IMG/VR virus record: IMGVR_UViG_3300028400_000003
Span: 1-64,000 of that record
Length of the DNA stretch: 64,000 bases
Strand: one strand, 5' to 3'
From: a virus
Shown here: positions 3,533-61,097 of the stretch, piece by piece
How the letters are laid out: each line of letters opens with the position of its first letter
How positions within the stretch are numbered: position 1 is the stretch's first letter
Program-made: the position numbers and the translations under genes
The notes under the pieces: model-generated
What the model saw: only the letters and a program-made list of their open reading frames with translations
Database searches by the model: none
Told to the model about the DNA's origin: nothing

Positions 3533-3900
3533 GCGCCGAACTTAACGCCGTCATGGTCAACGCCTTCGACGTTTCGCCGTTGTTTTACAGGATCACGGTG
3601 AGCGCCCTCCTCAACGGGGATACGGCCCTGGTCCGCGCGACGGGCGAGCATAAGACCCTGGAAGAAGCGGCCCGTATCGTGGCGAAGTATTGGGCGGGCA
3701 GCGGGTTGCCGTTTGACGGTCATGGCGAAAACCCCCGCGCCTTTATGCCGCCGGTCACGGTGGATGGCGTTGAGATTGCCTGGCTCCCTTCATCGTGGGA
3801 AACCGGAGGCATAAATGAACGCTGGTTGGCCATGAAGCCGCACCTGAGCGGCATTTACTGGGTTGCGGATGACGCCCTGGAGGTTGCTAATGACGCTTGA
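3529..3900 (+). CDS. hypothetical protein
   Basis: GTGA translational coupling. Confidence 0.55.
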   Translation: MSAELNAVMVNAFDVSPLFYRITVSALLNGDTALVRATGEHKTLEEAARIVAKYWAGSGLPFDGHGENPRAFMPPVTVDGVEIAWLPSSWETGGINERWLAMKPHLSGIYWVADDALEVANDA

Positions 3901-4939
3901 GGAGAAGATCAAGAGGTACATCGAGCTTGACATCCCCGTGCTGCTCAAGGGGCCGCCAGGGGTAGGTAAAACCGAGCGCATTAAGGACCTTGCCAGCGCT
4001 GAGGGCTGGCACCTTGAGGTGCTTCCCCTGAACGTCATGGAGCCGCCCGACGTTGGCGGCCTGCCGGGTATCGTCAACGGTGAAGCTGTTTTCTTCCCAC
4101 CCGAGTGGGCCAAGCGGGTAGAGCGGGCGGCGGCCGATGGTAAGCGCCCGGTGGTGTTTATTGACGAACTGAGCACGGTCCCGCCTGCCGTACAGGGACC
4201 GGCGCTCAAGCTCATTCGTGAGCGGTATGCGGGCACGATCAAGCTCCCGGAGAACACCCGCTTTATCGCGGCGGTCAATCCGCCCGATACCACGGCGGGG
4301 GCCTGGGATACCATCGCGCCGCTGGCCAACCGATTCGCCCACGTCGAGGTGCGGGCCGATCTGGATGAGTGGGTTGCGTGGGCAGCGCGTCAGTCACCGC
4401 ACCATGCCCGCATCGCGGCCTTCCTGAAAACGAAACCCACGCTGCTTTTCAACCAGCCTAGCGGCTCGACCCTGGCGGCCCAAGCCTGGCCCAGCCCCCG
4501 TACCTGGGATCACGTGGCCAAGCTGCTGCGGTTTGAACCCGAACCTGCGGAGCTTTATGAGATGGCCGTTGAACAGGTAGGCGAAGGGGCGGCGGCTGAG
4601 TTTGCGGCTTGGATCAAGAAGGCCGAACTGATTGACCCGCACAAGGCGCTGGCGCAACCCGACGCCTTCGCACTCCCCAAGCGCGAGGATGCGGCTTTCT
4701 CGCTTGTCTATGAGGCCGGGGCCATTCTCAGCAACGCGGATGACGTCACCCGCTACTGGGCTCCCTTCTGGCGGCTGCTCACCCGAGTGCTCGATGCGGG
4801 TTACCGGGACATTGCGGCCACCGGGGCCGTAGTGGCCGTAGAGGCCTTTAGGAAGAGCGGCGGCAAGCTGCCTATACCGCAAGAGATCACTCACTTCTCC
4901 GACTACGTGCAAAACGTTTTAGAAAAGGTACGCGGATGA
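3890..4939 (+). CDS. MoxR-like AAA+ ATPase
   Basis: Walker A GPPGVGKT, Walker B VFIDE, AVNP sensor, LANRF arginine finger, PSPRTW. Confidence 0.9.
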   Translation: MTLEEKIKRYIELDIPVLLKGPPGVGKTERIKDLASAEGWHLEVLPLNVMEPPDVGGLPGIVNGEAVFFPPEWAKRVERAAADGKRPVVFIDELSTVPPAVQGPALKLIRERYAGTIKLPENTRFIAAVNPPDTTAGAWDTIAPLANRFAHVEVRADLDEWVAWAARQSPHHARIAAFLKTKPTLLFNQPSGSTLAAQAWPSPRTWDHVAKLLRFEPEPAELYEMAVEQVGEGAAAEFAAWIKKAELIDPHKALAQPDAFALPKREDAAFSLVYEAGAILSNADDVTRYWAPFWRLLTRVLDAGYRDIAATGAVVAVEAFRKSGGKLPIPQEITHFSDYVQNVLEKVRG

Positions 4940-6117
4940 AGGCCAACGAGGTCTTAGAACTCCTACGGGCGGCCAGGCAGGTGGCCAGTCAACGCTACCC
5001 GTTCGTGGCTTCGATGATCTATGCCATGCATCTTAGGAGTGAGCCTACTCGCCACGAAGGTCTGGTAGCCGCCGTTTCCCAGCATGGAACGCTGTACTGG
5101 AACGATGAAGAGTTGCGCAAGATTGACCCCAAGCATTACCCTGGGATCATCTACCACGAGGCCAAGCACTTGTTGCTCAAGCATTTCAAGCGGGCGGAGA
5201 TCGCCGGTGTCGGTCCTGGGGGTCACAAGCCCTGGAACGTAGCGGCCGACATCGAGATCAACCAAGCGATACGGCGTGACCAAGCGCTTTCCCTACCTGA
5301 TTTTGCGTTGTACCCTGAAACGTTTGACCTTCCGCCTGGTCTGGTAGCGGAAGAGTATTACGACATGATCCGTGACCACGAAGACGCCCAAAGCGGCGCT
5401 CCTTCAGGGTCGGGTTCGGATGGGGTTGGGCGTGAGTGGGAGGGCGACTCCGAGGAGCCCCACCTTACGGAGGCCGACATCGAGGTGATACGTCACCAGG
5501 TGGCCAACGAGTATGTGGAGTGGAAAAAGCGCTATCAAGGTGCTACTCATGCGGACTACGAGCGCCTAGTCAAAGAGGTACTCAACCCGAAGGTTGACTG
5601 GCGGGTGTTGCTGGCGGGTCACATTCGCGCGGCCATTCAGGAGGGCTCGGGGGCTGACGACTACTCGTATAGCCGCCCAAGTCGCCGGTATGCAGGTAGC
5701 GGATTTGTTTACCCCAGGCTTCGAGGGCGTATACCAAAGGTGGCGCTGGTCCTTGACACTTCGGGCTCTATGAGTGCCCAAGACTTGAGCGTGGCTTTGT
5801 CTGAGGTGAAAGGGGTGATCGAAGCCGCCGGGGATGCTGTAGATTGGATCGCATACGACACCGAGGTCGCTTCGAGCGGGCGGACTCGAAGGCTCCAGGA
5901 CATTAAGCTGGCCGGGGGCGGTGGCACGGACATGAGTGCTGCGATCATGACCGCCGTTGAACGGAGCAGGCCCGATGTTATTGTGGTCATGACGGATGGG
6001 TATACGCAGTGGCCACCTGAGCCTGTTGGCCCTCACGTTATCGCCGCGATTATCAACACGAGGCAGACGCCGCCGGGGTGGATCAAGACCGTCTACGTAG
6101 GAGAGGAAAACGGATGA
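4936..6117 (+). CDS. DUF2201-type metallopeptidase + vWA domain protein
   Basis: HEAKH zincin motif, WNVAADIEIN, MIDAS DTSGS, GGGGT, TDG. Confidence 0.88.
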   Translation: MKANEVLELLRAARQVASQRYPFVASMIYAMHLRSEPTRHEGLVAAVSQHGTLYWNDEELRKIDPKHYPGIIYHEAKHLLLKHFKRAEIAGVGPGGHKPWNVAADIEINQAIRRDQALSLPDFALYPETFDLPPGLVAEEYYDMIRDHEDAQSGAPSGSGSDGVGREWEGDSEEPHLTEADIEVIRHQVANEYVEWKKRYQGATHADYERLVKEVLNPKVDWRVLLAGHIRAAIQEGSGADDYSYSRPSRRYAGSGFVYPRLRGRIPKVALVLDTSGSMSAQDLSVALSEVKGVIEAAGDAVDWIAYDTEVASSGRTRRLQDIKLAGGGGTDMSAAIMTAVERSRPDVIVVMTDGYTQWPPEPVGPHVIAAIINTRQTPPGWIKTVYVGEENG

Positions 6118-6726: not shown

Positions 6727-7241
6727 GCCGCCTTGATCAGCAGGCGCTCGATAGAATTGACCTTTCCGTTAGGGTTATCGTCGGTCCTATCATGGATGCC
6801 GTTACCCCGATTCTTAACGTGGCCGCAGCCCTGTTTTCCAGTGCGATGATGATCGTGCTCACTTACACGTCACCCTCTCCCCTGCTTTATGCGGTGTTTA
6901 CCACGGTGGCCATGCTGTCTGTAGCAACCATAGGTATAGCTTTTCATTACTGGCCTGAGCGCGAGGCCCGTGCGTGGTTGCAAACGGCGCGATCCGCGAT
7001 GCGCGAGGTGGCCGCTCACCCGCCCTCTTTAAAACGCCACTTGGAACGGATAGGGCGTATGCGTCTTCTTCTTCTCCCCAAGACCCGCCGGCTCCTCGAA
7101 GCAGTGGAAGAAGAAGCCGAAGCCTATTTCATCATGGCGCGGCTTATTGGGATACCTGACGATGAAGCGGCCTATTCCGACTGGTTCGCACGCCAGAGCG
7201 TCGAGGCGCGTATGAGGCAGAGTGGTATATCATGGGATTAA
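6723..7241 (+). CDS. membrane protein
   Basis: Two hydrophobic helices; coupled start. Confidence 0.5.
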   Translation: MSRLDQQALDRIDLSVRVIVGPIMDAVTPILNVAAALFSSAMMIVLTYTSPSPLLYAVFTTVAMLSVATIGIAFHYWPEREARAWLQTARSAMREVAAHPPSLKRHLERIGRMRLLLLPKTRRLLEAVEEEAEAYFIMARLIGIPDDEAAYSDWFARQSVEARMRQSGISWD

Positions 7242-7693
7242 TGGATAAACCCACTACAGTACGTGTACATATCGCCATGCCGTCAGGGGAGCGAGTGCGA
7301 ACGTGTCACGGCCGCCGCTTCGCCTGTCCCCTATGCGGTACCGAGTTGCAGCTAAAGCGGTCGAAGATTAGTGAGTTTATGGAGGATGCCGCTGGAACCC
7401 CGGTAAACGTTTTCAAGCGAACCTATTATTGCCCATCATGCGAGTTTAAACTGCATAGTCAGGTATGGCGGCCTTACGGAGAGAACCCGTGCTGCCAGCA
7501 GCAGCTTTCCCATTTGAACCCGAGTATGACCAAGATCGTGGACATGTGGGTGGAGCGCGACGGCAACCTTACCATCTACCGTAAGCGGGAGGCGTTCGCG
7601 TGCACTTGCGGCATATATTACGAGTGGCCCGAGGGGGCCGTAATACCCTTCGACCGTGGAGCCGACGCGGGTGGAAACGATGAACCGGTCTGA
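7241..7693 (+). CDS. Cys-rich Zn-binding protein
   Basis: CPLC, CPSC, CTC. Confidence 0.5.
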   Translation: MDKPTTVRVHIAMPSGERVRTCHGRRFACPLCGTELQLKRSKISEFMEDAAGTPVNVFKRTYYCPSCEFKLHSQVWRPYGENPCCQQQLSHLNPSMTKIVDMWVERDGNLTIYRKREAFACTCGIYYEWPEGAVIPFDRGADAGGNDEPV

Positions 7694-8027
7694 CTGCAAG
7701 CTCCCCCCTCACCTGGCGGTAGCCCTGGCCAGCGCCGTTCGCACGTACTACTCCGGCCGCTGGCCCGATCACGTGGCCCTGCCGCAGCTTCGCGCCGTAG
7801 ACCACGCCTATGACGAGCCCGGTGGAACCACGCTGCTCGACACCATGACTAGGGAACAGATGCAGGCGGGACTCGAGCGGCTGAAGTTGTTTTACCCGCG
7901 CGATCATAGGATGCTACTTGCTGGCCTGGGCAACAAGCTAGACCCCAAGCGGGCGGTGGTGTTTTACCTTGCGCTTTGCAGGCTATGGACGGTGTTGAGG
8001 GCACTTGATAAGCAGGGAGGAGAGTAG
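7680..8027 (+). CDS. hypothetical protein
   Basis: ORF in a tightly packed operon. Confidence 0.5.
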   Translation: MNRSDCKLPPHLAVALASAVRTYYSGRWPDHVALPQLRAVDHAYDEPGGTTLLDTMTREQMQAGLERLKLFYPRDHRMLLAGLGNKLDPKRAVVFYLALCRLWTVLRALDKQGGE

Positions 8028-8028
8028 T

Positions 8029-8241
8029 ATGACAAGAAGCGGAGAGAGGGCTGGAAAAAGGATGCTGCTGGCGGTAAGGGCGGGCGGCCTCGAAGCGGGC
8101 ACGCGGGTTGTGGTGCTGCGGCCCGTCGGAGATGGCCAGGTGTTGGCCCTGGTTGAGGGGGAGGGCAAGAAGGTCTTGCTCCCACGCAACGTGCTCAGTG
8201 AGGTGGTGAATGGTGATGAGGCGCAGACGGAAGAAGGATGA
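8029..8241 (+). CDS. small beta-rich (SH3-like) protein
   Basis: GGAGG RBS; LEAGTRVVVL pattern. Confidence 0.45.
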   Translation: MTRSGERAGKRMLLAVRAGGLEAGTRVVVLRPVGDGQVLALVEGEGKKVLLPRNVLSEVVNGDEAQTEEG

Positions 8242-8716
8242 GAAAGCGAAGGCCGATCAGCAAACCAAGCCTGAAGCTCAAGGGCTCGAGTCCGGGGTGG
8301 CCGGTGGCGGTGCTCAGGGCGTTGAGGCTACGGTTGAGGAGACTACGCCTACCGCGCAAAAGGGGGTAGGTTGGGATAAGGAGTTCAACGAGGCCGCCGA
8401 AGCGCTCGATGAGATCGTGGCCTGGCTTCGTGAGCGCGGCTTCAGAGACCTCGACATGCTGGTTCCCTGTTGCCCGCAACAGATCAGCGGCAGGACGCCG
8501 GGGGGCTGGTTGTTTTACTACAGGGTTAGGAGTGGCGATGGGATGCTCGTTGCCGATCCAGCCGTGAAAGACCTGAACGAGTTAGTCGAGCGCTCCTTCA
8601 GTGAAACCAACCCCCCGGCGGTTAGCCTGACCTGGGTTGAAGACTCCAAGGCCAACGGTGGATGGTCTACCCTGCTCACGGCCACCCGCAAATTGGCCAG
8701 CCTGGTAGGTTTCTGA
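8210..8716 (+). CDS. hypothetical protein
   Basis: GAGGTG RBS; coupled to the next ORF. Confidence 0.5.
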   Translation: MVMRRRRKKDEKAKADQQTKPEAQGLESGVAGGGAQGVEATVEETTPTAQKGVGWDKEFNEAAEALDEIVAWLRERGFRDLDMLVPCCPQQISGRTPGGWLFYYRVRSGDGMLVADPAVKDLNELVERSFSETNPPAVSLTWVEDSKANGGWSTLLTATRKLASLVGF

Positions 8717-8907
8717 TGGCGGACATTACCAAATGCAGAGTTGATCAGTGCGACTTTAAGGAGCGGTGCTGGCGCTACCTGGCACCGGCAAGCGAACATA
8801 ATCAGGCCTGGTTCCTGCCGCAGCCGAACAAGACTGGAATCTTTTGCGAGTTGTTTTGGGATGTAAGCGATGCCAAAAACCGCAGGGCCAGACGTACCGC
8901 GCGTTGA
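8716..8907 (+). CDS. small Cys-rich phage protein
   Basis: MADITKC...C..KERCWRY...CELFW. Confidence 0.55.
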   Translation: MADITKCRVDQCDFKERCWRYLAPASEHNQAWFLPQPNKTGIFCELFWDVSDAKNRRARRTAR

Positions 8908-9172
8908 GTCTTCCGGTCGGAGGTGTTTGGTCATGGCCGCGTTAATGCCCCGGTTGATCATGCTGGCCCACGAGATTAGGCGGGTGTTGCCGGGTAGAAG
9001 CATCCACTTGGTTTACGAACCTGATGAAGATGGAACAATCTGGACGATGTATGTACTGCTAGCTGGTAATAACCTATACGACGACCTGTCCAAGCTTTAC
9101 TCCATCTATTACGACTTTCTACCTAGGCAGGGTCCGCAATTCAACCGACGGGTAGCCCTAGCCCCGTTGTGA
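8870..9172 (+). CDS. hypothetical protein (start uncertain)
   Basis: ORF track; fills the operon. Confidence 0.4.
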   Translation: MPKTAGPDVPRVESSGRRCLVMAALMPRLIMLAHEIRRVLPGRSIHLVYEPDEDGTIWTMYVLLAGNNLYDDLSKLYSIYYDFLPRQGPQFNRRVALAPL

Positions 9173-9180
9173 ACTAGGAC

Positions 9181-9209
9181 TAGACGTGTAGCGCGTTAAC
9201 ATGTATAGT
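9181..9209 (+). promoter_or_regulatory. variant sigmaA promoter
   Basis: TAGACG-17-TATAGT. Confidence 0.55.
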
Positions 9210-9220
9210 AGGCGTGAGGG

Positions 9221-9427
9221 GTGACTGGAATGACCATACGCTACCGCTTCGAGGCGCAACGCAAGGATACGGGCTACACCGTAAAGGTGAGCACGTCGCA
9301 CTATCCGTTTGCCTCCTGGCGGGATGCTGGCACCCTCAGCCTGAGTGTCGAAGAGTGGGAGGCGCTGCGTGACATGATCGGGCGCTTTACGGCCAGCGTC
9401 AAGCTGGACGAGTTGCAAGAGGTTTAG
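9221..9427 (+). CDS. small hypothetical protein, paralog of 1105-1311
   Basis: IRYRF...GTLSLSVEEWEAL. Confidence 0.6.
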   Translation: MTGMTIRYRFEAQRKDTGYTVKVSTSHYPFASWRDAGTLSLSVEEWEALRDMIGRFTASVKLDELQEV

Positions 9428-9440
9428 GTGCACCACAATG

Positions 9441-9462
9441 GCCCCGGCATGCCGGGGCTTTT
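9441..9462 (+). terminator. intrinsic terminator
   Basis: GCCCCGGC-AT-GCCGGGGC-TTTT. Confidence 0.75.
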
Positions 9463-9476
9463 AGCAGTCTTTGGGC

Positions 9477-9522
9477 TTGACAAATAGCGCAACCCCCTAT
9501 ATACTAAGGACAGGAGGTAGGC
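9477..9522 (+). promoter_or_regulatory. repeated promoter+RBS cassette
   Basis: TTGACAAATAGCG...TATACTAAGGACAGGAGGTAGGC. Confidence 0.9.
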
Positions 9523-9909
9523 ATGCTGAAGAACATGGAACATATCAGAAGCGCGTTTGACAAGGCGATCAAGGAACGCATCGTGCCTGACTGGGAGGCG
9601 TTCGCGCGTGAGCATGGCGAGGGCGATGCGGAAATGCTGGCGCATGACCTCTACCGCTTCGATCCCCGCTGGTGCGATTGCCCGGAGGAGACGAAGGTCT
9701 GGATCAACGAGACGCTTGCTCGGGCTGCTCGCGAGTACCTGGAGGCGCTGAAAGCCAAGGCGCAAGCCAAGCCGCAACCGCAACCTGACTACCCGGAGGG
9801 GCGGGAGCTGGACTGCGGGCACGTGGTCTACTACAAAACTGACGTTATGCGGGCCAGCCTCGGGACCGTTTGCCCCGACTGCTACGATGACCCCCGCTGG
9901 AGCGGCTAG
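9523..9909 (+). CDS. early hypothetical protein with C-terminal Zn finger
   Basis: LDCGH...VCPDC. Confidence 0.6.
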   Translation: MLKNMEHIRSAFDKAIKERIVPDWEAFAREHGEGDAEMLAHDLYRFDPRWCDCPEETKVWINETLARAAREYLEALKAKAQAKPQPQPDYPEGRELDCGHVVYYKTDVMRASLGTVCPDCYDDPRWSG

Positions 9910-9910
9910 C

Positions 9911-10204
9911 ATGGAAAGGCCGCTGATCGTCACACGACACCCCGCCCTCGTTGAGTATCTACGGGAGCTTGCGCCGAGCCTCCACGAGGCCGAAGTGCGA
10001 ACCCACGTGACGGAAGACGACGTGCGGGGCCGGGTGGTGTTTGGAACGCTGCCGCTTCATCTGGCAGCCCTTGCGGAAAAGGTAGTCGTGGTGCCGCTAA
10101 ACCTTCCTTACGAACTGCGGGGTAAGGAGCTAAGCCTGGAGCAGGTTCGCCAGTATGCGGGCAAACTTGAAGTCTATGTGGTGCAGAAGGAGGCGGTGGA
10201 ATGA
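9911..10204 (+). CDS. csx16: Csx16-like (Cas_VVA1548) protein, candidate viral ring nuclease
   Basis: IVTRHPALVEYL, VFGTLPLHLAA, L.LPYELRGKELSLEQ...Y.V match the Csx16 family pattern. Confidence 0.75.
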   Translation: MERPLIVTRHPALVEYLRELAPSLHEAEVRTHVTEDDVRGRVVFGTLPLHLAALAEKVVVVPLNLPYELRGKELSLEQVRQYAGKLEVYVVQKEAVE

Positions 10205-10560
10205 GCACCAAACAAGCAACGCAGATCGAGTGGATGGCCAGCTTTTTCTACAAGACCGTGGCGAGGGCGTGGTTGCACCTCTACCTTGCTGAGAGGAGCG
10301 TGGGCCTCGCCATCACAAACGGCGCTGCGGAGGAGGCCGTTCACATCAGCTTTGCTAGGCTAGCCCTCAAGCATGCGGAGATGGAGGTGGACAACGCACG
10401 GGTCATCATGAACGACCTGGTAGGGCTGATGAAGGAGCGGTCATGGGCGAAAGAGGAACGGGCCGAGGTGGAGGGTGTTTTCTATCAGCTAAGCGGTGCG
10501 TTCAGCAATTTAAAGCGGCGCGTGGCGCAGGTAGGGGGAGGTGATGGTGGTGAGCGGTAA
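10201..10560 (+). CDS. helical hypothetical protein
   Basis: ATGA coupling, GGAGG RBS. Confidence 0.55.
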   Translation: MSTKQATQIEWMASFFYKTVARAWLHLYLAERSVGLAITNGAAEEAVHISFARLALKHAEMEVDNARVIMNDLVGLMKERSWAKEERAEVEGVFYQLSGAFSNLKRRVAQVGGGDGGER

Positions 10561-10762
10561 GCACACGATCAAAGAGCTAATGGAGTTGTGGCAGGAGTAC
10601 AACCGTAAGCGTGACGAGTATGGCCGTCTGAGGTTCGGCCAATTCGTGTGCAACAGGTTCGGCTGGAGCGGGCGGGATAGGCTGTTCTACACCACGGACA
10701 ACAACGATGCCTTTAGAATGGCCTATGAAATTCTTCAAGGCGAAAAGGAGGTAGGCTGGTGA
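10541..10762 (+). CDS. hypothetical protein
   Basis: LRFGQF.CN...LFY motif, recalled from small phage proteins. Confidence 0.55.
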   Translation: MMVVSGKHTIKELMELWQEYNRKRDEYGRLRFGQFVCNRFGWSGRDRLFYTTDNNDAFRMAYEILQGEKEVGW

Positions 10763-11442
10763 GTGAGCCGATCAAGGACCACGTAGTGTTTTTCGACATC
10801 GAGACCGTTCCCTCGACGGATGAGGAGGTGCGGCGTGCGGCCCATGCACGGGCGACCCGCATTGCTGAAGGCAAAGGGGAGGAGGCCCCAACAGAAGAAG
10901 AGGCGATCCAGCGCTTCGCCATGAGCAATGGAATTTACAACGAGATTGTCAGTATCGCATGGGCCAAGGGCGAGGGAGAGGTACAGGTGGCCACGGCCAA
11001 GGACTTTGAAGAGGTTAGCCTGCTCACCATGTTCGCCACCGCGTTGGGCAACCCCAAGCGCGTGTTCCTGGTAGGCTACAACATCTTCGCCTTCGACCTG
11101 AAGGTCATGTTCCAGAGGGCGGTCATCCTTGGCGGCCCCAGTCATCCGGAGTTTGAAAACCTGTTCAAGGTCCTGCCCAAGCCATCGGTTGCGCCCTGGC
11201 AGGCCGGTAACGCGCTCGATCTGGCCACCTACTGGAACGGCGTTGCCGGTATCAAGGCCCCACTCTATGATCTGGCCGTTGGTTTGGGGCTGGTCAGTTA
11301 CGATGAGGCGGCGCGATACGACAACGGGGCCGACGTGGCCGGGTTCGTGCGGGATGGGGAGTGGAACAAGCTCCGCGAACACAACGCCTTTGACGTGCAC
11401 ATCACCCGCGAAATTTACCGGCGCGTGGTGCTCGGGGGTTAG
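10759..11442 (+). CDS. DEDD 3'-5' exonuclease (PolB-related)
   Basis: ExoI FDIET, ExoII GYN..FDL, ExoIII HN..DV. Confidence 0.85.
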   Translation: MSEPIKDHVVFFDIETVPSTDEEVRRAAHARATRIAEGKGEEAPTEEEAIQRFAMSNGIYNEIVSIAWAKGEGEVQVATAKDFEEVSLLTMFATALGNPKRVFLVGYNIFAFDLKVMFQRAVILGGPSHPEFENLFKVLPKPSVAPWQAGNALDLATYWNGVAGIKAPLYDLAVGLGLVSYDEAARYDNGADVAGFVRDGEWNKLREHNAFDVHITREIYRRVVLGG

Positions 11443-11443
11443 G

Positions 11444-11839
11444 GTGTCGCAGGTAGTGGTCAGGACCGAAATATGCGACATGGTGCTGCATCGAGAGCAG
11501 CGCTCGAAGGCCCGCAAGCGTCACCGGTGCACGTCCTGCGACGGCCCGATTCCACCGGGAGCCACTTACACGAGGCACGGGGTGCTTGAGCGGGCGGATG
11601 GCAGGTGGCATACCTATAAGGTTTGCGGCCGCTGCGAGGAGCTTTTCTACTGGAACCTTGACCAGGGGGCTTATGCCTGCGAAACGAGCTTTACCGATCC
11701 CGTAGAAGACTTTTTCGACAGCTACACAAAGGGAGACCTGCCCATGTTGGCCCGTAGCGCTATGCCCCGCGATCTGGCCAACTGGTTGGCGAGGTTATGC
11801 GGGACTACACTAGCAAGGCTTGAGAAAGGAGAGGAATGA
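11444..11839 (+). CDS. Zn-finger protein
   Basis: KARKRHRCTSC..I.PG..Y...C..C. Confidence 0.6.
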   Translation: MSQVVVRTEICDMVLHREQRSKARKRHRCTSCDGPIPPGATYTRHGVLERADGRWHTYKVCGRCEELFYWNLDQGAYACETSFTDPVEDFFDSYTKGDLPMLARSAMPRDLANWLARLCGTTLARLEKGEE

Positions 11840-12129
11840 GCAAGCCCAACGCGCAAGGCAGAAGGGGGATGACCATGAGCGTATCCGTGACCATCGAGGT
11901 GGGACCGCTGGCAGAGCCGCTTGGCAGGCAGCTTGAACAGAAAGGCATTGCCTACAACCGCAAGGGCGTGGCGGCGCTGGAAAAAGACCTTGAAGCGGTT
12001 CACCGGCTCAAGGTTCGTGGTTATCTGAACGATCAGACGGTAGCCTCCATCGAGGAAGAGATCGTCACGGAGAGGCTTGGCGGGGAAGTTTACACCGGCG
12101 AGGAGGAGGCGAAAAATGGAAAAGCCTGA
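11836..12129 (+). CDS. hypothetical protein
   Basis: Coupled ORF with RBS. Confidence 0.5.
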   Translation: MSKPNAQGRRGMTMSVSVTIEVGPLAEPLGRQLEQKGIAYNRKGVAALEKDLEAVHRLKVRGYLNDQTVASIEEEIVTERLGGEVYTGEEEAKNGKA

Positions 12130-12823
12130 CGCTCACACTTTGATCAAGCAGTTTCGCGAGGTCTACCCGATCCTGATCGAGACACAGATGCTACTCGATG
12201 CTCCGCGCATGGGCAACCCGCCGCCAGAATCCCTTCTCCGCGTGGCCCTGCTTGCTGAGATCGGGGAGATGCTGAATGCCCTAAAGCCTAGATGGGCATG
12301 GTGGAAGCGGCGGGACAAGACCTTTGAAGAGGGTGACGTGTTAGGCGAGTTGGCGGACATAATGCACTTCGCGCTTGGTCTCGACGTTCGTGTGCTTCAC
12401 TCGATCTACGCAGAGGCCGCGGTCGGGCATGGAAAGCACCCCGTAACGCTCAGCGGTTTTACCTTTGCCCATGCTAAGCCGCACATCGGCCTTCTCCTAG
12501 ATCACTACGCCGATGAAGGTCCGGCTCGCCGGTTGCTCGATTCCGCCATCGGAGAGTATGAAGCCTGCCTCGACGGGCTCGATGAAGGGCCGTGCGACAT
12601 CGTGGCGGAGCTGCTTTACAGGGGGTGGTTTACCTTTGATACCGCACCCTACATGCGCCTTCACTCCTACAGGACTTATGTTGAGATGATCGTTATGGCC
12701 GGGTTTAGCGTCGAGCGCCTGGTAGACGCTTATTTTAACAAAGCCCGGGAGAACATGGGGCGGTGGGAGCGTGACCCCAAGCAGGTTGACGAGGTGCTGA
12801 GGAGAGGGGCGGGCCATGAGTGA
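12116..12823 (+). CDS. dimeric (all-alpha) dUTPase-like protein
   Basis: EIGEMLN...WAWWK, ELADIMHF, Y..K...N..R. Confidence 0.8.
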   Translation: MEKPDAHTLIKQFREVYPILIETQMLLDAPRMGNPPPESLLRVALLAEIGEMLNALKPRWAWWKRRDKTFEEGDVLGELADIMHFALGLDVRVLHSIYAEAAVGHGKHPVTLSGFTFAHAKPHIGLLLDHYADEGPARRLLDSAIGEYEACLDGLDEGPCDIVAELLYRGWFTFDTAPYMRLHSYRTYVEMIVMAGFSVERLVDAYFNKARENMGRWERDPKQVDEVLRRGAGHE

Positions 12824-12982
12824 CGTGGACAAGAAGCTCAAGAAGTTGCGTGAGCAGATCGCGCGGCTTGAGCGTAAGCTTACTGAACTAGAGGGTGCGC
12901 TGGAGGAGGTCAGGGGCTCTCCACGGAAAACCGATGGGGCGAAGAAGGAGCCACGGGTGCCCGTCAAAACCTACAAAGAGTA

Positions 12983-13300
12983 TTGATCATGCTCAAGGCG
13001 TATTGGGTTGGCCCGCCGCCTCACTCGCCTATCTCTCCAGGCCATCTGATTTGGGCCGATGGAGAGCGCAAGGCCCGGCTTTTGTTTGCTCAACACGTGG
13101 AGTGGGCGGATGAGATTGCCTTCATGTATCCACCCTACATCAGCGCGAGGGCATGGCGGGCACCGGGCTATGACGGCATGGTGACAATGGCGATGCTATC
13201 GGATGACGTGGTGTACGTAGGGTCTGATGGCGTAGTCCCTAGTCATGACTTCTTGCGCGAGGTCGGGGCCTTTTCCGACGCGCTCGAGTCCCTCGATTGA
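12983..13300 (+). CDS. hypothetical protein
   Basis: ORF track. Confidence 0.45.
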   Translation: MIMLKAYWVGPPPHSPISPGHLIWADGERKARLLFAQHVEWADEIAFMYPPYISARAWRAPGYDGMVTMAMLSDDVVYVGSDGVVPSHDFLREVGAFSDALESLD

Positions 13301-13305
13301 ATTGC

Positions 13306-13334
13306 TTGACAAATAGCGTAATACCCTATATAAT
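13306..13334 (+). promoter_or_regulatory. promoter, leaderless transcript
   Basis: TTGACA-17-TATAAT, 6 nt before the ATG, no SD. Confidence 0.85.
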
Positions 13335-13340
13335 GCAGGC

Positions 13341-14630
13341 ATGGAACCGAAGGCGATCTACCTGGTAGGCGGAGCGGTGAGGGATGTACTGCTTGGTCGC
13401 CCGGTAAGCGACCTGGACCTGCTGGTAGAGGGGTTCAGTCAAGACGAGCTTAAAGCGACGCTCGGGGAGCCCAACGGCAAGAGCTTTCCCGTGTGGCGGT
13501 ACGGACCTTTTGAAGTGGCCGCCGCCAGGTTGGAAAGAAAGACCGGCGCGGGTCACAAAGGGTTCAGCGTCGAATGGGGAGAGCACGTGACCGCCAGGCA
13601 GGAGCTTGGCCGTCGCGACTTTACCGTCAACGCGCTGGCCCTGCTGATCTGGTCAGGCAACGGCGGCATGCCTAGCGTGAGAACACTAGAGGCTATCACG
13701 GCCGCCGCTATCGTTGATCTGAGCAAGCACGGCCGCAACGCCGTTGGCCTCCTGAACCCGTTTGGGGGACTCGAGGATTTGCTGGATCACAAGGTGCTCA
13801 GGGCCACGAACCGCAAGGCGTTCCGGGAAGACCCGTTACGGGTGCTGCGTCTGGCCCGCTTCGCGGCGCGGTGGCCCTGGATGAGCCTGGACGAGTGGAC
13901 GGTCGAGGCCGCCCGCAACGCGGTGCACGAGCTTAAAACCCTGCCTGCTGAGCGGGTGTGGAACGAGTGGGTTAAAGCCAGCAAGACCCGCCGCCCCGAC
14001 CGCTTCTTCCAAGTGCTTGACCAGGTGGGGGCGCTTGAGCACCTGCCAGGCTTCGCTTGGTTGAAAAGGGCTAAGCAGCTGACCCCGCCGAACCACTCGG
14101 AGAGTCTGTTTGACCACTCACTGCGTACCCTCCGGGCGGCGCGGCGGCTCGTTGGCGTGGACGTGGCCCTGCTGTCTGCGGCCCTTTGGCATGATCGGGG
14201 TAAGCTGGCGGGGTCGGTTGGGCATGACCGCCACGGGGTGGAAATGGCCCTCGAAGACCTCGACGCGCTCAAGGCTCCGCGCAACGTTCGGCGAACCGTA
14301 GCTACGTGGGTCCGTAACCATATGCGGGTTTGGGATGCCAAGCGGGCGGGCAAGTTGGTTCGGTTGGCCGCTGACCTGGATCGAGCGGGGTTTGACCCTA
14401 ACCTTGTTACGCGCATGGCGGCTGCGGATAGCCTGGGAAGCACCAAGCGTAAAAGCGACGCGCGGGCGATCTGCAAGATGCACCGCCGCCTTGCCCTGGC
14501 GTTCAAGTCGCTTAGTGCGGTGCGTGGTGACGACCCGGCCCTGGATGGAGTCAGTGGTCAGGATGTAGGGGTCAAGCTGCTAGGGCTTCGTGCTCACTGG
14601 TTGTCACGCAGAATGAGGGGAAGGCTATGA
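13341..14630 (+). CDS. cca: tRNA nucleotidyltransferase (CCA-adding, class II) with HD domain
   Basis: VGGAVRD..LG..DLDL, RRDFTVNA, EDPLRVLR, ER.W.E, H...HD.GK. Confidence 0.9.
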   Translation: MEPKAIYLVGGAVRDVLLGRPVSDLDLLVEGFSQDELKATLGEPNGKSFPVWRYGPFEVAAARLERKTGAGHKGFSVEWGEHVTARQELGRRDFTVNALALLIWSGNGGMPSVRTLEAITAAAIVDLSKHGRNAVGLLNPFGGLEDLLDHKVLRATNRKAFREDPLRVLRLARFAARWPWMSLDEWTVEAARNAVHELKTLPAERVWNEWVKASKTRRPDRFFQVLDQVGALEHLPGFAWLKRAKQLTPPNHSESLFDHSLRTLRAARRLVGVDVALLSAALWHDRGKLAGSVGHDRHGVEMALEDLDALKAPRNVRRTVATWVRNHMRVWDAKRAGKLVRLAADLDRAGFDPNLVTRMAAADSLGSTKRKSDARAICKMHRRLALAFKSLSAVRGDDPALDGVSGQDVGVKLLGLRAHWLSRRMRGRL

Positions 14631-14893
14631 CCTATTTCATGGCGTGTGAAGAGGTGTTGGACAAGCCGGCCTTCCTTGAAGGGGCTAAGGGAGGCTACTA
14701 CCGCGCCTTCGTTACGGCCGAGGCGCTGCTGGCCAGTTTCCAGGGCTCCGATGATACTCCTGTAGCCCTGTTTGACGGTAACGCTAAGCGTGATCCAGAG
14801 GGCGGCGCTGATGGGATGGTGCTGGTCTGGCCGGTTCGCCTGCTGGGTTGGACTACGGTTAGTGACCTGCGGGGTAAGGTAAAGCGGCGCTAG
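14627..14893 (+). CDS. hypothetical protein
   Basis: ATGA coupling. Confidence 0.45.
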   Translation: MTYFMACEEVLDKPAFLEGAKGGYYRAFVTAEALLASFQGSDDTPVALFDGNAKRDPEGGADGMVLVWPVRLLGWTTVSDLRGKVKRR

Positions 14894-14954
14894 GTGTACG
14901 GCATTTTGCCGCACATTTAAAAGTTTGACCGGGTACAAACATGGTTTATTGCGC

Positions 14955-15000
14955 TTGACAAATAGCGTAGTACCCTATATACTAAGGACAGGAGGTAGGC
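14955..15000 (+). promoter_or_regulatory. repeated promoter+RBS cassette
   Basis: TTGACAAATAGCGTAGTACCCTATATACTAAGGACAGGAGGTAGGC. Confidence 0.9.
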
Positions 15001-22248: not shown

Positions 22249-22567
22249 GGGGGCGAACAGGGTTCGACGGAGCAGAAGGTAGCCGTGGCGCGGGGGCGAG
22301 GTGCCGGAGGCCTCGTAAAACACCGGCAAGCTGTAACTGGCAACGACACTTTTCTCGCCGCTGCTTAGCAAAGTCTAGGCAGCCGGGTCAGCGTCAGACC
22401 TGGGAACAGAAATGACGCCCTCGTGCAAGATGCCTACCTCCAAGGGTATACCGCTACCCGCTCGCACGGGCAAAAGGCGGTGTTAGTACGGCGTGTTCAT
22501 ACCCCCAACGAGTAGCGCCACGCCTACCCTGTTTCGGACGCGGGTTCAATACCCGCCGCCTCCACCA
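22249..22567 (+). ncRNA. ssrA: tmRNA
   Basis: 5' GGGGGCGAA..GGTTCGAC; 3' T-arm GCGGGTTCAATACCCGC-CGCCTCCACCA with G3:U70; tag ORF 22339-22368 GNDTFLAAA* after TAACT. Confidence 0.93.
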
Positions 22568-22570
22568 CTC

Positions 22571-22594
22571 GGGCCGCCTTCGGGCGGCCCTTTG
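22571..22594 (+). terminator. intrinsic terminator
   Basis: GGGCCGCC-TTCG-GGCGGCCC-TTTG. Confidence 0.8.
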
Positions 22595-22607
22595 CTTGTG
22601 TCAACAC

Positions 22608-22636
22608 TTGACAAAAATAGTAGGGTCATATATAAT
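22608..22636 (+). promoter_or_regulatory. tRNA-cluster promoter
   Basis: TTGACA-17-TATAAT. Confidence 0.85.
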
Positions 22637-22684
22637 ACAGCTGGCAGCCGCAGGCGGCCGGTGGAGCTTGAAAACCTAGATCGT

Positions 22685-22760
22685 ATAGGGGTGGCGCAAT
22701 TGGTAGCGCACCGGCTTTGGGAGCCGGGGGTTGCGGGTTCAAGCCCCGCCCCCTATACCA
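22685..22760 (+). tRNA. trnP: tRNA-Pro(TGG)
   Basis: Cloverleaf, anticodon loop TTTGGGA, encoded CCA; A1:U72. Confidence 0.9.
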
Positions 22761-22763
22761 TAT

Positions 22764-22806
22764 GGGCGGCATGGATGCAAGCTGGGTTCAAGCCCCAGCC
22801 CGCCCA
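22764..22806 (+). ncRNA. tRNA minihelix-like element (acceptor-like stem + T arm only)
   Basis: GGGCGG/CCGCCC stacked on GCTGGG-TTCAAGC-CCCAGC. Confidence 0.5.
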
Positions 22807-22810
22807 AGAG

Positions 22811-22994
22811 CGCGGGAGTTGCACCATGATGCGCAGAGCAGCCGATGGAAGGTGCAACAGGTTGCCGCCGAAGGCGGGGTCGGCGGTGGAAACAATGGAG
22901 CGGGTTTGGGAAGATGCGGCCAGCTACGCTGACCAACGCATCGGCCCGAGCGTAGGGGAACCCGCAGGGGCTACGGTAGGTGGGGACCGTAGCT
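22811..22994 (+). ncRNA. structured non-coding element A (two stem/AGGYGGGG-hairpin units)
   Basis: Four stems; linkers and loops are shared with element B while the stem sequences differ. Confidence 0.65.
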
Positions 22995-23000
22995 GTTTAT

Positions 23001-23076
23001 GGGCGCGTAGCTCCAACGGGAGAGCGGCCGGTTTGCACCCGGCAGGTTGCAGGTTCAAATCCTGTCGCGTCCACCA
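23001..23076 (+). tRNA. trnA: tRNA-Ala(TGC)
   Basis: Cloverleaf, G3:U70, CCA. Confidence 0.93.
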
Positions 23077-23079
23077 TGC

Positions 23080-23169
23080 GGTGGGGTGGCGGAGCCAGGT
23101 TTAACGCACCCGGTTGCTAGCCGGGCGGTCTGAAAAGGCCCGTAGGTTCAAATCCTACTCCCACCGCCA
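23080..23169 (+). tRNA. trnS: tRNA-Ser(GCT)
   Basis: Long variable arm, G73, CCA. Confidence 0.9.
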
Positions 23170-23172
23170 GAT

Positions 23173-23250
23173 GCCAGCGTAGCCCAATCAGGCAGAGGCA
23201 CCCGGCTTAGGACCGGGGTAGTGCAGGTTCAAGTCCTGCCGCTGGCACCA
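23173..23250 (+). tRNA. trnL: tRNA-Leu(TAG), short variable loop
   Basis: Anticodon loop CTTAGGA, A73, CCA. Confidence 0.85.
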
Positions 23251-23251
23251 T

Positions 23252-23326
23252 GCCCGGTTAGCTCAACGGTAGAGCGTTCGCCTTGTAAGCGAGGGGCTGG
23301 GGGTTCAAATCCCTCACCGGGCTCCA
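23252..23326 (+). tRNA. trnT: tRNA-Thr(TGT)
   Basis: Cloverleaf, U73, CCA. Confidence 0.92.
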
Positions 23327-23329
23327 GAG

Positions 23330-23536
23330 GGGCGTCTGCACGACGCATGCGGCCTGGCGCGGGCGGGGCGGGCCGTCGCGGGAGCCTGTTCGGAGCCGGA
23401 GGGCTGCACTAGATCATGGGAACAGGCAGGCTGCACCGGAGGTGGGGCCGGTGTGGAAGCGGAGCAGACCTAGTAGGCTTCATGCCTGCGGAGCGTAGGT
23501 GGGGTCTGCACATCATGATCGGCGGGGGTCATGATG
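23330..23536 (+). ncRNA. structured non-coding element B (three units), paralog of A
   Basis: Same linker and loop order as A, with compensatory stems. Confidence 0.65.
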
Positions 23537-23542
23537 ACTCGA

Positions 23543-23618
23543 TGGCCGGTAGTTCAAATGGCAGAACAACGGACTTTGGATCCGTGGGTTGCAGGTTCGA
23601 GTCCTGCCCGGCCAGCCA
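23543..23618 (+). tRNA. trnQ: tRNA-Gln(TTG)
   Basis: U1:A72, G73, loop CTTTGGA, CCA. Confidence 0.92.
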
Positions 23619-23621
23619 GAC

Positions 23622-23708
23622 GGAGGGGTCGCCAGTAGGTGCGGCAACCGGTCTTGAAAACCGGGGCGGGTAACACCGTTGCAGGTTCGAGTCCTGTCCC
23701 CTCCGCCA
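23622..23708 (+). tRNA. trnS: tRNA-Ser(TGA)
   Basis: Long variable arm, G73, CCA. Confidence 0.9.
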
Positions 23709-23711
23709 TAT

Positions 23712-23786
23712 GGCCCTGTCGTCTAATGGACAGGACATCTGCCTACGGAGCAGAAGATCGGGGTTCGAGTCCCTGCGGGGCCGCCA
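23712..23786 (+). tRNA. trnR: tRNA-Arg(ACG)
   Basis: Loop CTACGGA, CCA. Confidence 0.9.
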
Positions 23787-23806
23787 GAAAGAAAGGGGCG
23801 ACCGGT

Positions 23807-23986
23807 GTGGAAAGACCTTATTGCCTTCTCGTTGATAACTTTGTGACCGCCTGTGGAAAGTACAGGTTTGCCATCGTTGACTTCCCCTACGTCGCAAGAA
23901 CACTCGATGAGGTCACATGCGAAGAGTGCAAACGCTCCAAGGAATACCAGAAGTTGGTAGACATGGCCCCGTCGTCTAATGGATAG
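23807..23986 (+). CDS. small Cys-containing protein between tRNAs
   Basis: GAAAGGGG RBS; TACG...VTCEEC; stop lies inside tRNA-Arg(TCT). Confidence 0.5.
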   Translation: MERPYCLLVDNFVTACGKYRFAIVDFPYVARTLDEVTCEECKRSKEYQKLVDMAPSSNG

Positions 23987-24039
23987 GGCAGCGGGCTTCT
24001 AACCCGCCTGTGCAGGTTCGAGTCCTGCCGGGGTCACCA
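23965..24039 (+). tRNA. trnR: tRNA-Arg(TCT)
   Basis: Loop CTTCTAA, CCA. Confidence 0.92.
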
Positions 24040-24051
24040 GAAGGAGGGACG

Positions 24052-24522
24052 ATGACGAGGGAGATATGCAAGGCGTGCGGTCGGGTCAGTCGCGTAGGGT
24101 TCAGCGTCCCGGATGACCTTTGGGCCGAGGTGGTGCCCGAGGTCTATCGCGATAACGTCGTGTGCCTGGCGTGCTTCACGGAATGGGCTGATGAGTCGTT
24201 GAGGCCCTGGGACGAGAAGATCGAACTTTACCCGGTTTCCTTGAAGACGCTTCTATCCTATGAACAATCTGGCATAGTGGATACCCCAGAAGTAGGGCTG
24301 CGGCGCTTGCTCGACGAACTTGTTAGTCAGGGGCGCATCCTCAAGGCCACCTTTAATAGAATGCAACAACGCTACTGGAATGTTGTCCTTGAGGTTGACG
24401 AGGAACAGTACTACAAGGCAGGCTTCCGGCTTGGCATCATTTCCGAAATAACCGAAAAGATAGACCGGCAGTATGGAATCTACACGAACATCACCATGCA
24501 TCCAAAACGGGTGGAAACATGA
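24052..24522 (+). CDS. Zn-finger hypothetical protein
   Basis: CKACG...F.VPD.LW...CLACF. Confidence 0.55.
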   Translation: MTREICKACGRVSRVGFSVPDDLWAEVVPEVYRDNVVCLACFTEWADESLRPWDEKIELYPVSLKTLLSYEQSGIVDTPEVGLRRLLDELVSQGRILKATFNRMQQRYWNVVLEVDEEQYYKAGFRLGIISEITEKIDRQYGIYTNITMHPKRVET

Positions 24523-25178
24523 AACGGGCGCTTCGTAAGCATCATAGAACTTACCATCTTCCTTGGAGCGAAGGCGCGTCACGGGACGATCTGATTGTGC
24601 CAAGCGACGATCATTTTACCGGCCTGCCAGTCGTGGTAACGGAGAAGATGGACGGCGAAAACACATCACTCTACCGCCACACCGTACACGCGAGGTCGGT
24701 AAACAGCGGCCACCATCCATCTAGGGCATGGATCAAGGGCTTCTGGGCGAAGATCGCCCATGCCATACCGGACGGCCTGATCATTCGCGGCGAAAACCTT
24801 TATGCAACGCATTCCATCTACTACGCCGATCTACCAAGCTACTTCATGGGGTTCGCCGTCGAAACCGCAGAGGGGCTTGTGTGGTCATGGAGAAGGACCG
24901 TTGAGTTGTTTGAAGCGCTTGGCATCGAGCCGGTTCCGGTGATATATGAAGGGCTATACAATCGCGACGTGATACACCGGGCGGCTATGGAATATTTCGC
25001 CAAGACTGGCGGCCTTGATCGTCATGAGGGGTACGTCGTTCGGGTGAGCGGTGGATACCTAGCCTCAAAGCATAAGACGAGGATCAATAAATGGGTTCGC
25101 AAAGACCATGTGACCACGGACGGGCATTGGATGCATGGTAAGTTAGTGGTAAATGGGTTGGCAAAGGAGAGGGGGTAG
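24519..25178 (+). CDS. RNA ligase (Rnl2-like nucleotidyltransferase domain)
   Basis: TEKMDGEN, GENLYA.HSI.Y, EGYVVR, KWVR. Confidence 0.88.
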   Translation: MKRALRKHHRTYHLPWSEGASRDDLIVPSDDHFTGLPVVVTEKMDGENTSLYRHTVHARSVNSGHHPSRAWIKGFWAKIAHAIPDGLIIRGENLYATHSIYYADLPSYFMGFAVETAEGLVWSWRRTVELFEALGIEPVPVIYEGLYNRDVIHRAAMEYFAKTGGLDRHEGYVVRVSGGYLASKHKTRINKWVRKDHVTTDGHWMHGKLVVNGLAKERG

Positions 25179-25180
25179 GA

Positions 25181-25402
25181 GTGCGGCGAAGACGTAGAGG
25201 TCTAGCGGCAAGGAAGGCCAAGCAGGTGGCCAAGACGCTTATTGGCGGCATGTTAGGTACGGCCTTCGGGGCCGTGATGCTCCCATTGGAGGCGCTTCAT
25301 CGGGCCGAAACCGGCTTGACGGATGAACCCTATCTAGTCGAGGAGGGCTTAGGCAACTTGTTTGGCGGCCTCGTGGAAACCATGTTTGACTGGGAGGAGT
25401 AG
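25181..25402 (+). CDS. hypothetical protein
   Basis: RBS, operon packing. Confidence 0.45.
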   Translation: MRRRRRGLAARKAKQVAKTLIGGMLGTAFGAVMLPLEALHRAETGLTDEPYLVEEGLGNLFGGLVETMFDWEE

Positions 25403-25411
25403 GAGGATACG

Positions 25412-25678
25412 ATGACCAAGAAGGAGATGCAGAAACGCATTAACACCCTGGAAGAAGAGGTGGCCTTTCTGCGGGAGCTAGTGCGTATGCTGACGCATGG
25501 ACAGATGCCACAAACCCCAACCTATCCCACGCCTACGCCCTGGCAGCCGCTACCCAGACGAACGAATCCGGTATGGCCGCAACTCCCGTGGGACATCTGG
25601 GTTGGCGATAATACAGGCGGTAAGCCGAAGCACTGGAGCAGTAGCGCTAGCGGGGTTGAAGTCAGCGCCTTTCACTAG
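25412..25678 (+). CDS. hypothetical protein (coiled coil + Pro-rich)
   Basis: AGGAGG RBS. Confidence 0.5.
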   Translation: MTKKEMQKRINTLEEEVAFLRELVRMLTHGQMPQTPTYPTPTPWQPLPRRTNPVWPQLPWDIWVGDNTGGKPKHWSSSASGVEVSAFH

Positions 25679-25790
25679 TAGAATGGTCTTACATCCCCCT
25701 CGACGCTGCGGCGTTGAGGTGCACCCCCGCCGAACCGTCACCGTAGGTGGCTTGCCGAAGGGCTAGGCGGGGGTTGCGTTATGATCAGGT

Positions 25791-26345
25791 ATGAAACCCT
25801 TACGCGATGGAAAGATTGTAGGCGTTGATCCAGGCACGGGTAAGGTTCACGTGGCTGTCCTGCGAGTATCGGATGGCCGGCTTTACTATGAAACCAGTGG
25901 CTCCTACGGGGTAGGCGACCTTGAACCGGTCAAGGAGCTGCTAAGCACGGCCAAGAGGTTGGTTGTAGAGAAACCCGGCGGTACCCTGTACGGAAAGGTG
26001 CGCTACGATCACCTGGTAATGATCAGCGTCAACGCAGGCCGCGTGTTCCAAATGGGCATAGACCAGGGGCTCGAGTCCCGCCTGGTAAACGCGCATGGTC
26101 CTGGAGGCTGGCGGCCCGCATTGCTTAAGAGCGGAAAGGGCTACCGTCGAAAGGGGCAAGAGGTAGCGGAGCTTGAGGCCCTGCTGCCTTACCTGATCCG
26201 TGAGCTACCGCTTCGCAATGGTAGGTTGAAGGGGGTGGTGAGTGAGCACCAGCGGGACGCCTTGGGCATAGCCGTGGCGGGCGCGTTGGGGCTTAACCCG
26301 CTACCCCGTAGAGGCAAGCAGCGCCGTGGACCCATAGCTCAATAG
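25791..26345 (+). CDS. RuvC-like Holliday junction resolvase
   Basis: IVGVDPG, VVEKP, H.RDALGIA. Confidence 0.75.
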   Translation: MKPLRDGKIVGVDPGTGKVHVAVLRVSDGRLYYETSGSYGVGDLEPVKELLSTAKRLVVEKPGGTLYGKVRYDHLVMISVNAGRVFQMGIDQGLESRLVNAHGPGGWRPALLKSGKGYRRKGQEVAELEALLPYLIRELPLRNGRLKGVVSEHQRDALGIAVAGALGLNPLPRRGKQRRGPIAQ

Positions 26346-26404
26346 GTTAGAGCACCCGGCTCATAACCGGTAGGTTGCAGGTTCAAGTCCTGCTGGGTCC
26401 ACCA
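26328..26404 (+). tRNA. tRNA-CAT, probably Ile2 (lysidine type) rather than Met
   Basis: GGACCCA acceptor, CCGG-CTCATAA-CCGG arm, not initiator-like; CCA. Confidence 0.85.
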
Positions 26405-36141: not shown

Positions 36142-36675
36142 ATGACGAGAAAGGGCGGGAAGCCTAGGAAGAAAGCCAAGGACTCGCTTGATCCACAGGC
36201 ACGTGAGGGCATACGCCTGGAGTACGTAACGCGCAACGCGAGCCTGAGCAGCCTGGCCAACCGTCACAACGTACCCCTGGAAGAGCTACGGAGCATAGCC
36301 GATGAAGAGGGCTGGCACGGTCAGCGTGATGAGTATTGGCGCGGGGTGTACACGGACGTCATTCACGCTACTCGCGCGGCTACGGCCAACCTAATGGCCG
36401 GTACGGTTAGCTCCGCCGATAGGTTGGTGCGTTGGGCCAAGGAGCAGATGGCGGTCAACGAAAAGACGGGCGAGGTCAGAATTGGCCCTGACCAAGTAAT
36501 TGATATCGCCAGGGCGATCAGGGTCTCCCTTGACGTGCTCAAGTTTACACTTGGAGAGCCTGACAGCCTGGTAGTTTCCACAGGGGTTGAACCGGCGGTA
36601 AAAAGTTACGTCATGGAGGAGGCGGCTCGCGCGTTGAAGGACATTATCGGCGAAGACGACGGTGACGATGAATGA
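36142..36675 (+). CDS. terS: terminase small subunit
   Basis: N-terminal HTH (EYV...SL..LA..H...W...R), directly before terL. Confidence 0.7.
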   Translation: MTRKGGKPRKKAKDSLDPQAREGIRLEYVTRNASLSSLANRHNVPLEELRSIADEEGWHGQRDEYWRGVYTDVIHATRAATANLMAGTVSSADRLVRWAKEQMAVNEKTGEVRIGPDQVIDIARAIRVSLDVLKFTLGEPDSLVVSTGVEPAVKSYVMEEAARALKDIIGEDDGDDE

Positions 36676-61083: not shown

Positions 61084-61097
61084 TGATGGGGGGGAAG

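Follow-up and report, generated by a model that had tools for sequence, protein, structure and literature searches.

The locus described here raises the question of what a virus does with a small stand-alone gene of the Csx16 family. Point mutations hardly allow phages to evade type III CRISPR immunity, so that enzymes destroying its second messenger are a main viral answer; to our knowledge, AcrIII-1 is the only one so far shown to work by second-messenger destruction in viruses. The window, i.e. the whole stretch of 64,000 nucleotides that was analysed, corresponds to bases 1–64000 of an IMG/VR virus record that is linear, 84,085 bp long and estimated by CheckV to be 82% complete. The gene under study, csx16, and the features surrounding it are the following:

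9440..9463, + strand: putative terminator of the upstream unit, formed by a G+C-rich hairpin of 8 bp (stem 9440–9459) followed by UUUU, from the fold
9477..9505, + strand: sigma-70-like promoter TTGACA-17-TATACT, matching the consensus at 11 of 12 positions and heading the operon
9523..9909, + strand: first gene of the operon (ORF), encoding an orphan protein of 128 aa whose C-terminus is rich in Cys; AGGAGG precedes the ATG
9911..10204, + strand: csx16, encoding a 97-aa stand-alone Csx16 (PF09652), candidate cA4 ring nuclease, from the ORF, profile matches and alignment
10201–10560 and 10541–10762, + strand: small orphans downstream of csx16
10759–11442, + strand: PolB-type 3'-5' exonuclease
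12077–12823, + strand: dimeric-dUTPase-like protein
10201..13300, + strand: remainder of the csx16 transcription unit, with further orphans up to the promoter at 13306

The csx16 frame starts with the ATG at 9911 and ends with a TGA at 10202–10204 (97 codons). Its translation contains T8-R9-H10, G45-T-L-P-L-H-L-A-A53 and L65-P-Y-E-L-R-G-K-E-L74; the length of 97 aa and the three motifs given in the original prediction (TRH, GTLPLHLAA and LP.ELRG.EL) are thus all found. An alternative ATG at 9887 could be used and would lead to a protein of 105 aa. The start at 9911 is favoured because, in the family alignment, the relatives begin about five residues before the V-T-R-H motif, and a GGAG located 9 nt 5' of this ATG also fits. 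With a GC content of 60.2% and a GC3 of 0.67, csx16 resembles 11 other genes of the record, whose GC3 is 0.65–0.79, and has therefore not been inserted recently.

As had been predicted, csx16 is the second gene behind a strong promoter: the site at 9477–9505 is followed by the ORF 9523–9909, and csx16 starts one base past the stop of this ORF. The region harbours six promoter-like sites versus 1.9 ± 1.4 in shuffled sequences, and the next equally strong promoter on the + strand is found at 13306–13334. The hairpin stretch at 9440–9463 is weak, as the fold of 51 nt is no better than those of shuffled sequences (z –0.32) and as it is absent from the terminator scan. The 128-aa orphan belongs to no Pfam or PHROG family, and the zinc-ribbon leads obtained for it in the ESM Atlas are weak and sub-threshold (score 0.83, model pTM 0.30). 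The possibility that it is a split-off N-terminal zinc ribbon of a longer Csx16 protein was considered and rejected, since it does not match the N- or C-terminal extensions carried by other members of the family (best E 0.26). PHROGs contain no family for the Csx16 protein or its three small neighbours, the ORF downstream of csx16 retrieves only generic helical bundles in the ESM Atlas, and Rfam finds nothing in 8000–14000. No RNA sequencing run is listed as containing 7000–15000; a single DNA run is.

Does the 97-aa protein belong to the Csx16 family? The HMM check against PF09652 (Cas_VVA1548, i.e. Csx16), which had been set beforehand, gives the only Pfam match of the protein, with an E-value of 4.3e-19, a score of 68.9 bits for a cut-off of 25 and an alignment that covers positions 2–90 of the 91 positions of the profile. 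TIGR02620 from NCBIfam, a stricter model of the type 'hypoth_equivalog_domain', is aligned over positions 2–92 of 93 with a score of 30.7 bits, which is under its cut-off of 46.35. A word-indexed protein search retrieved 169 homologues at E<=1e-3; PF09652 is present in all of the 120 homologues listed among these 169, the best identity being 81%. The closer relatives (up to 81% identity) are all metagenomic among the matches listed, and the one at 81% lies on a contig of 2.1 kb. An exhaustive search among representatives at 50% identity extended this set to 1430 clusters at E<=1e-3, including 540 at E<=1e-10.

The residues conserved in the family are also present. An alignment of 269 domain sequences includes 16 columns that are conserved at >=90%, all of which are kept in the protein (V7, T8, R9, H10, L13, L17, H32, V43, G45, L47, P48, L51, R70, G71, E73 and L74); a smaller alignment agrees. 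The columns conserved at 75–90% are kept in 14 of 16 cases, the exceptions being A21 instead of G and T46 instead of V. Six of the residues kept at the >=90% columns are polar (T8, R9, H10, H32, R70 and E73). They are of the kinds named in PMC8284326, where His, Arg and Asp/Glu are described as residue types compatible with a ring-nuclease function in Csx16. Judged from its sequence, it is nearly certain that the 97-aa protein is a genuine and intact member of the Csx16 family.

The organization of the family was analysed with a profile built from 27 members, which served to cut the Csx16 domain from 260 family proteins. The domain was found in all 260. Stand-alone proteins like the one studied here are the most frequent (150), followed by proteins with a C-terminal extension of at least 35 aa (55), proteins with an N-terminal extension of at least 35 aa (42), tandem two-domain proteins (12) and a single protein with both extensions. 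The two-domain chains could possibly be single-chain pseudo-dimers. Some of the extensions may be over-long gene calls; at least two CxxC motifs are found in 8 of the 43 N-terminal extensions. A search of the PDB with the family profile found no solved Csx16 by sequence.

The record that carries csx16 displays the following functions in the window, which include those of a tailed phage:

1705–2724: Gp3-like recombination directionality factor domain
13341–14630, 22249–26404 and nearby: CCA/poly(A) polymerase with an HD domain, tmRNA and ten tRNAs
36672–38207: large terminase (Terminase_6C), from Pfam and tblastn matches to annotated terminases

The record also encodes a protein of 1514 aa with a phage minor-tail domain of the tape-measure type. 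The tag encoded by the phage tmRNA is GNDTFLAAA. The last 20 kb of the record encode a RecD2-like helicase, Mre11-like and SbcC-like proteins, a DnaC-like loader, ThyX and a dCTP deaminase. Elsewhere (3863–6117 of the window), a DUF2201 metallopeptidase-like/VWA protein comes after an AAA_5 (MoxR-like) ATPase, the two forming a conserved pair.

No Cas10 palm domain was detected in the whole 84-kb record, the same search being positive in 6 of 14 control genomes, and the window contains no CRISPR-like direct-repeat array, its short-range repeats being only tRNA arms and one 65-nt pair. The copies of this pair are 94% identical and 96 nt apart (61941–62101); they lie inside the ORF 61083–62147, in the tail-gene region. 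The statement of the original prediction that no cas genes lie in the window stands for the two features that were looked for, Cas10 in the whole record and CRISPR-like arrays in the window. The carrier of csx16 is therefore a tailed phage devoid of Cas10 and, in the window, of a CRISPR-like array, as is expected beside a viral copy of the gene.

Viral relatives of this Csx16 are rare among deposited phages. Megablast of 8000–14000 against deposited phages finds no relatives. Likewise, tblastn of the Csx16 protein against a collection of 50,697 phage records finds none at E<=1e-3 and, at E<=10, only Methanobacterium virus Drs3 (31.8% identity, E 5e-3; two records of one virus), and tblastn with a second member of the family (P0087) finds none. 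According to Hoikkala et al. (2025, PMC12409355), Csx16 occurs in 68 type III loci, and a survey of 28,114 phage genomes identified AcrIII-1 in 36 of them, Csx20 in four and Csx16 in two; our guess is that the two Drs3 records are perhaps these two genomes. In IMG/VR, by contrast, at least 67 other contigs encode relatives of the protein with 38–62% identity, a lower bound since a single peptide pattern was used. With at least 68 IMG/VR contigs for one deposited virus, viral Csx16 seems to be much more frequent among uncultured viruses than among deposited phages, an abundance that bears on the place of origin of the family. The Cas10 palm domain was found in none of these 67 records, 14 of which are estimated to be at least 90% complete.

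The genes that surround csx16 are not shared between these loci. When 125 crude ORFs of the record were compared by tblastn with 74 loci, only scattered single matches and no conserved partner were found. In blastp comparisons of the ORFs located within 4 kb of csx16 with the same zone of 72 other loci, csx16 alone matches. In an all-against-all clustering of the neighbours, no neighbour family is present in more than five loci, and the second largest cluster consists of csx16 shadow frames. Therefore, the gene travels alone among very different viruses, and its viral pattern is that of a solitary accessory gene.

Multiple copies per genome also occur. IMGVR_UViG_3300033153_013547 (261,124 bp, direct terminal repeats, 100% complete) carries three separate Csx16 domains and is thus a giant phage with three Csx16 paralogues. 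The MAG contig JAGGVC010000034.1 has three separate Csx16 domains too, and the copies of both pair one-to-one in the tree. It is possible that this 'MAG' contig stems from a related phage and was binned with a bacterial genome.

Csx16 is also found on plasmids and in cellular genomes. Four plasmid records match the protein. On pMESIL02 from Allomeiothermus silvanus, a tandem Csx16 lies between conjugative-transfer genes, without any cas gene within 9 kb. Six of eight cellular genomes that bear Csx16 have a Cas10 over the cut-off somewhere, a count that comes without a base rate, and Csx16 and Cas10 have different contig numbers in the cellular genomes tested, from which we draw nothing as to the adjacency of the two genes.

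The relationships between viral and cellular copies were examined with a quick maximum-likelihood tree. It started from 88 domain matches, matches of fewer than 75 model positions having been left out beforehand and exact duplicates being dropped, and finally included 72 rows (56 viral, 15 cellular and the window protein) and 95 columns. Viral and cellular labels are intermixed and the starred branches force at least six changes. The Csx16 of the window belongs to a supported set of eight rows that comprises six viral proteins, one long-branched protein from Bryobacterales and the window protein itself. With 95 columns and 38 of 69 inner branches unresolved, the tree leads us to claim neither a donor nor a direction of transfer. 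The proposal that the phage acquired the gene as an off-switch of its host is not retained, since those of its nearest relatives whose context is known are viral and no direction of transfer can be read from the tree.

A Thermus host, implied by the original prediction, is no better supported. Only one sequencing run is listed as containing the phage DNA; its label is hydrothermal vent metagenome, and it is possibly the sample from which the record was obtained. PF09652 is found in none of 14 control genomes, including that of Thermus thermophilus, and in 7 of 364 Deinococcota genomes. The named relatives of the CCA enzyme belong mostly to Pseudomonadota (31–40% identity), with a single one from Bacillota and one from Bacteroidota, and include no Deinococcota, among the 120 listed. 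The close relatives of the terminase are metagenomic proteins, and its nearest named homologue comes from a Planctomycetes MAG (29% identity). As CCA-enzyme relatives at 31–40% identity are too distant, no host is named. If the vent source reflects a thermophilic host, the phage Csx16 might be heat-stable.

What could this protein do in an infected cell? In vitro, Csx16 and Csx20 have proved to be ring nucleases specific for cA4 (Hoikkala et al. 2025, PMC12409355). In the assays reported there, one cellular Csx16 degraded cA4 and neither cA3 nor cA6, a result that bears out the link between Csx16 and ring-nuclease activity drawn in the original prediction. Ring nucleases are encoded by viruses and plasmids and can act as anti-CRISPRs (PMC13148439, PMC12830947). 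The following chain can be proposed. During infection, the host RNA polymerase would transcribe csx16 from the consensus-like promoter at 9477. The protein would most likely form a homodimer that binds the cA4 made by the Cas10 of a host type III CRISPR system and would cleave it to linear products. The cA4-dependent effectors (Csx1/Csm6, Can1/Can2 class) would then never be switched on, or would be switched off, and the phage Csx16 would be an anti-CRISPR with the mode of action of AcrIII-1 but from another protein family. We infer the activity of the protein, its dimeric state, the 'early' timing of its expression and its anti-CRISPR effect, together with a cA4-signalling type III system in the host of the phage. 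This full chain, in which a cA4 ring nuclease counters type III CRISPR, has in our view a probability of roughly 65%. What stands of the anti-type III reading first proposed is the membership of the Csx16 family, the location on a phage and the lack of Cas10, and what is not supported is the Thermus host and the capture from a host.

Other activities of the protein would give a different picture. It could be a cA4 sponge, i.e. bind cA4 tightly with little or no turnover, and still be an anti-CRISPR. PMC12409355 cites phage proteins that act as sponges of cyclic nucleotides, and Csx15, a related member of the wider group, is described as mostly a cA4 sponge (PMC13148439). However, the Csx16 assayed in PMC12409355 degraded within 1 h all of the cA4 supplied in 100-fold excess, the phage protein retains all the highly conserved polar residues of its family, and Csx15 was seen in no phage genome (PMC13148439), all of which makes a sponge improbable. 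Even less probable is a decayed or repurposed Csx16-like fold devoid of cOA function, for example a protein-binding module built around the ankyrin-like G-x-L-P-L-H-L-A-A. This motif resembles the ankyrin motif G-x-T-P-L-H-L-A-A and, when the family profile is compared with PDB sequences, it retrieves designed ankyrin-repeat proteins with a best whole-sequence E-value of 6e-10; the score below the TIGR02620 cut-off would also fit some decay. Yet, in the two alignments inspected, the scores of the designed ankyrins are sums of weak stretches of the short motif, each of which reaches at most 8.4 bits with an E-value of its own of at least 21, and the full 91-position Csx16 model is matched by the phage protein with every highly conserved column kept. 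An ankyrin-repeat protein proper was rejected, as no Ank family is found at E<=1 in the Pfam scan and as the protein has a single copy of the motif and not tandem repeats of 33 residues. The mimicry of the ankyrin consensus by the Csx16 signature is a trap for automatic annotation.

A ring nuclease could also serve the phage for something besides counter-defence, such as the tuning of a cyclic-nucleotide pathway, the damping of self-targeting in a lysogen or the processing of another signal, for example of the CBASS type. According to PMC12409355, the role of ring nucleases in cells is probably to reset signalling or to damp it, the Gp3-like recombination directionality factor domain is compatible with a temperate lifestyle, and the record is, by estimate, only 82% complete. 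Against such roles, the 10 large ORFs scanned in 64–84 kb include no integrase, the Cas10 search revealed no cOA-dependent effector or cyclase in the record, and the Csx16 assayed in vitro kept its cA4 specificity at a 10-fold higher enzyme concentration (PMC12409355). This possibility therefore appears about as improbable as the sponge.

Starting from the preferred reading, a cA4 ring nuclease directed against type III CRISPR, a broader picture can be drawn that we consider improbable. Csx16 would be chiefly a counter-defence family of mobile elements, far commoner in uncultured viruses than the two cases in 28,114 phage genomes indicate, and the phage studied here would respond to cA4-activated RNases at two levels. 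The signal would be eliminated by Csx16, and the tRNA set, the tmRNA and the HD-domain CCA enzyme of the phage would repair or replace the RNAs that have been cut.

The comparison with known systems places the phage protein close to cellular Csx16. Both share the Pfam family over the full domain, a size class of about 95 aa and the highly conserved residues, and the chemistry expected for the phage protein would be the same, i.e. the cleavage of cA4. They differ in that the phage copy has no Cas10 in its record or array in its window and scores under the TIGR02620 cut-off, and in that its expected role would be to subvert the signal instead of resetting it. On mobile elements, the Csx16 of pMESIL02 (WP_013159883.1) likewise has no cas gene within 9 kb, whereas it is a protein of 261 aa with two Csx16 domains per chain, 47.8% identical to the phage Csx16 over one domain. 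Among viruses, ORF3 of Drs3 (AXN53384.1, annotated as 'Putative CRISPR-associated protein (Cas_VVA1548)') is likewise a short gene of the Csx16 type that stands alone, and its virus is tailed, but this virus is archaeal and the identity between the two proteins is only the 31.8% given above.

Other ring nucleases are related to the phage Csx16 by context and not by sequence. The phage orthologues of Csx20 and Crn4b are also CRISPR ring nucleases found in few phage genomes, Csx20 in 4 of 28,114 (PMC12409355) and Crn4 in 11 of 28,137 (PMC12830947), and they are proposed to be anti-CRISPRs. They belong to other families, Crn4 having an unrelated fold and a broad substrate range. The idea of a phage Csx16 acting as an anti-CRISPR has been published before and belongs to a known kind; the excerpts of the literature on Csx16 that were available contain no activity, binding or immunity test of a viral Csx16. 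AcrIII-1/Crn2 (DUF1874, PF08960 STIV_B116-like) belongs to a sequence family that is not that of the phage Csx16. Indeed, as the original prediction had stated when it separated the protein from AcrIII-1, PF09652 is matched and PF08960 is absent, both from the matches of the protein at E<=1 and from the whole record. If its activity is proven, viral Csx16 would be a second anti-type III family, unrelated in sequence to AcrIII-1.
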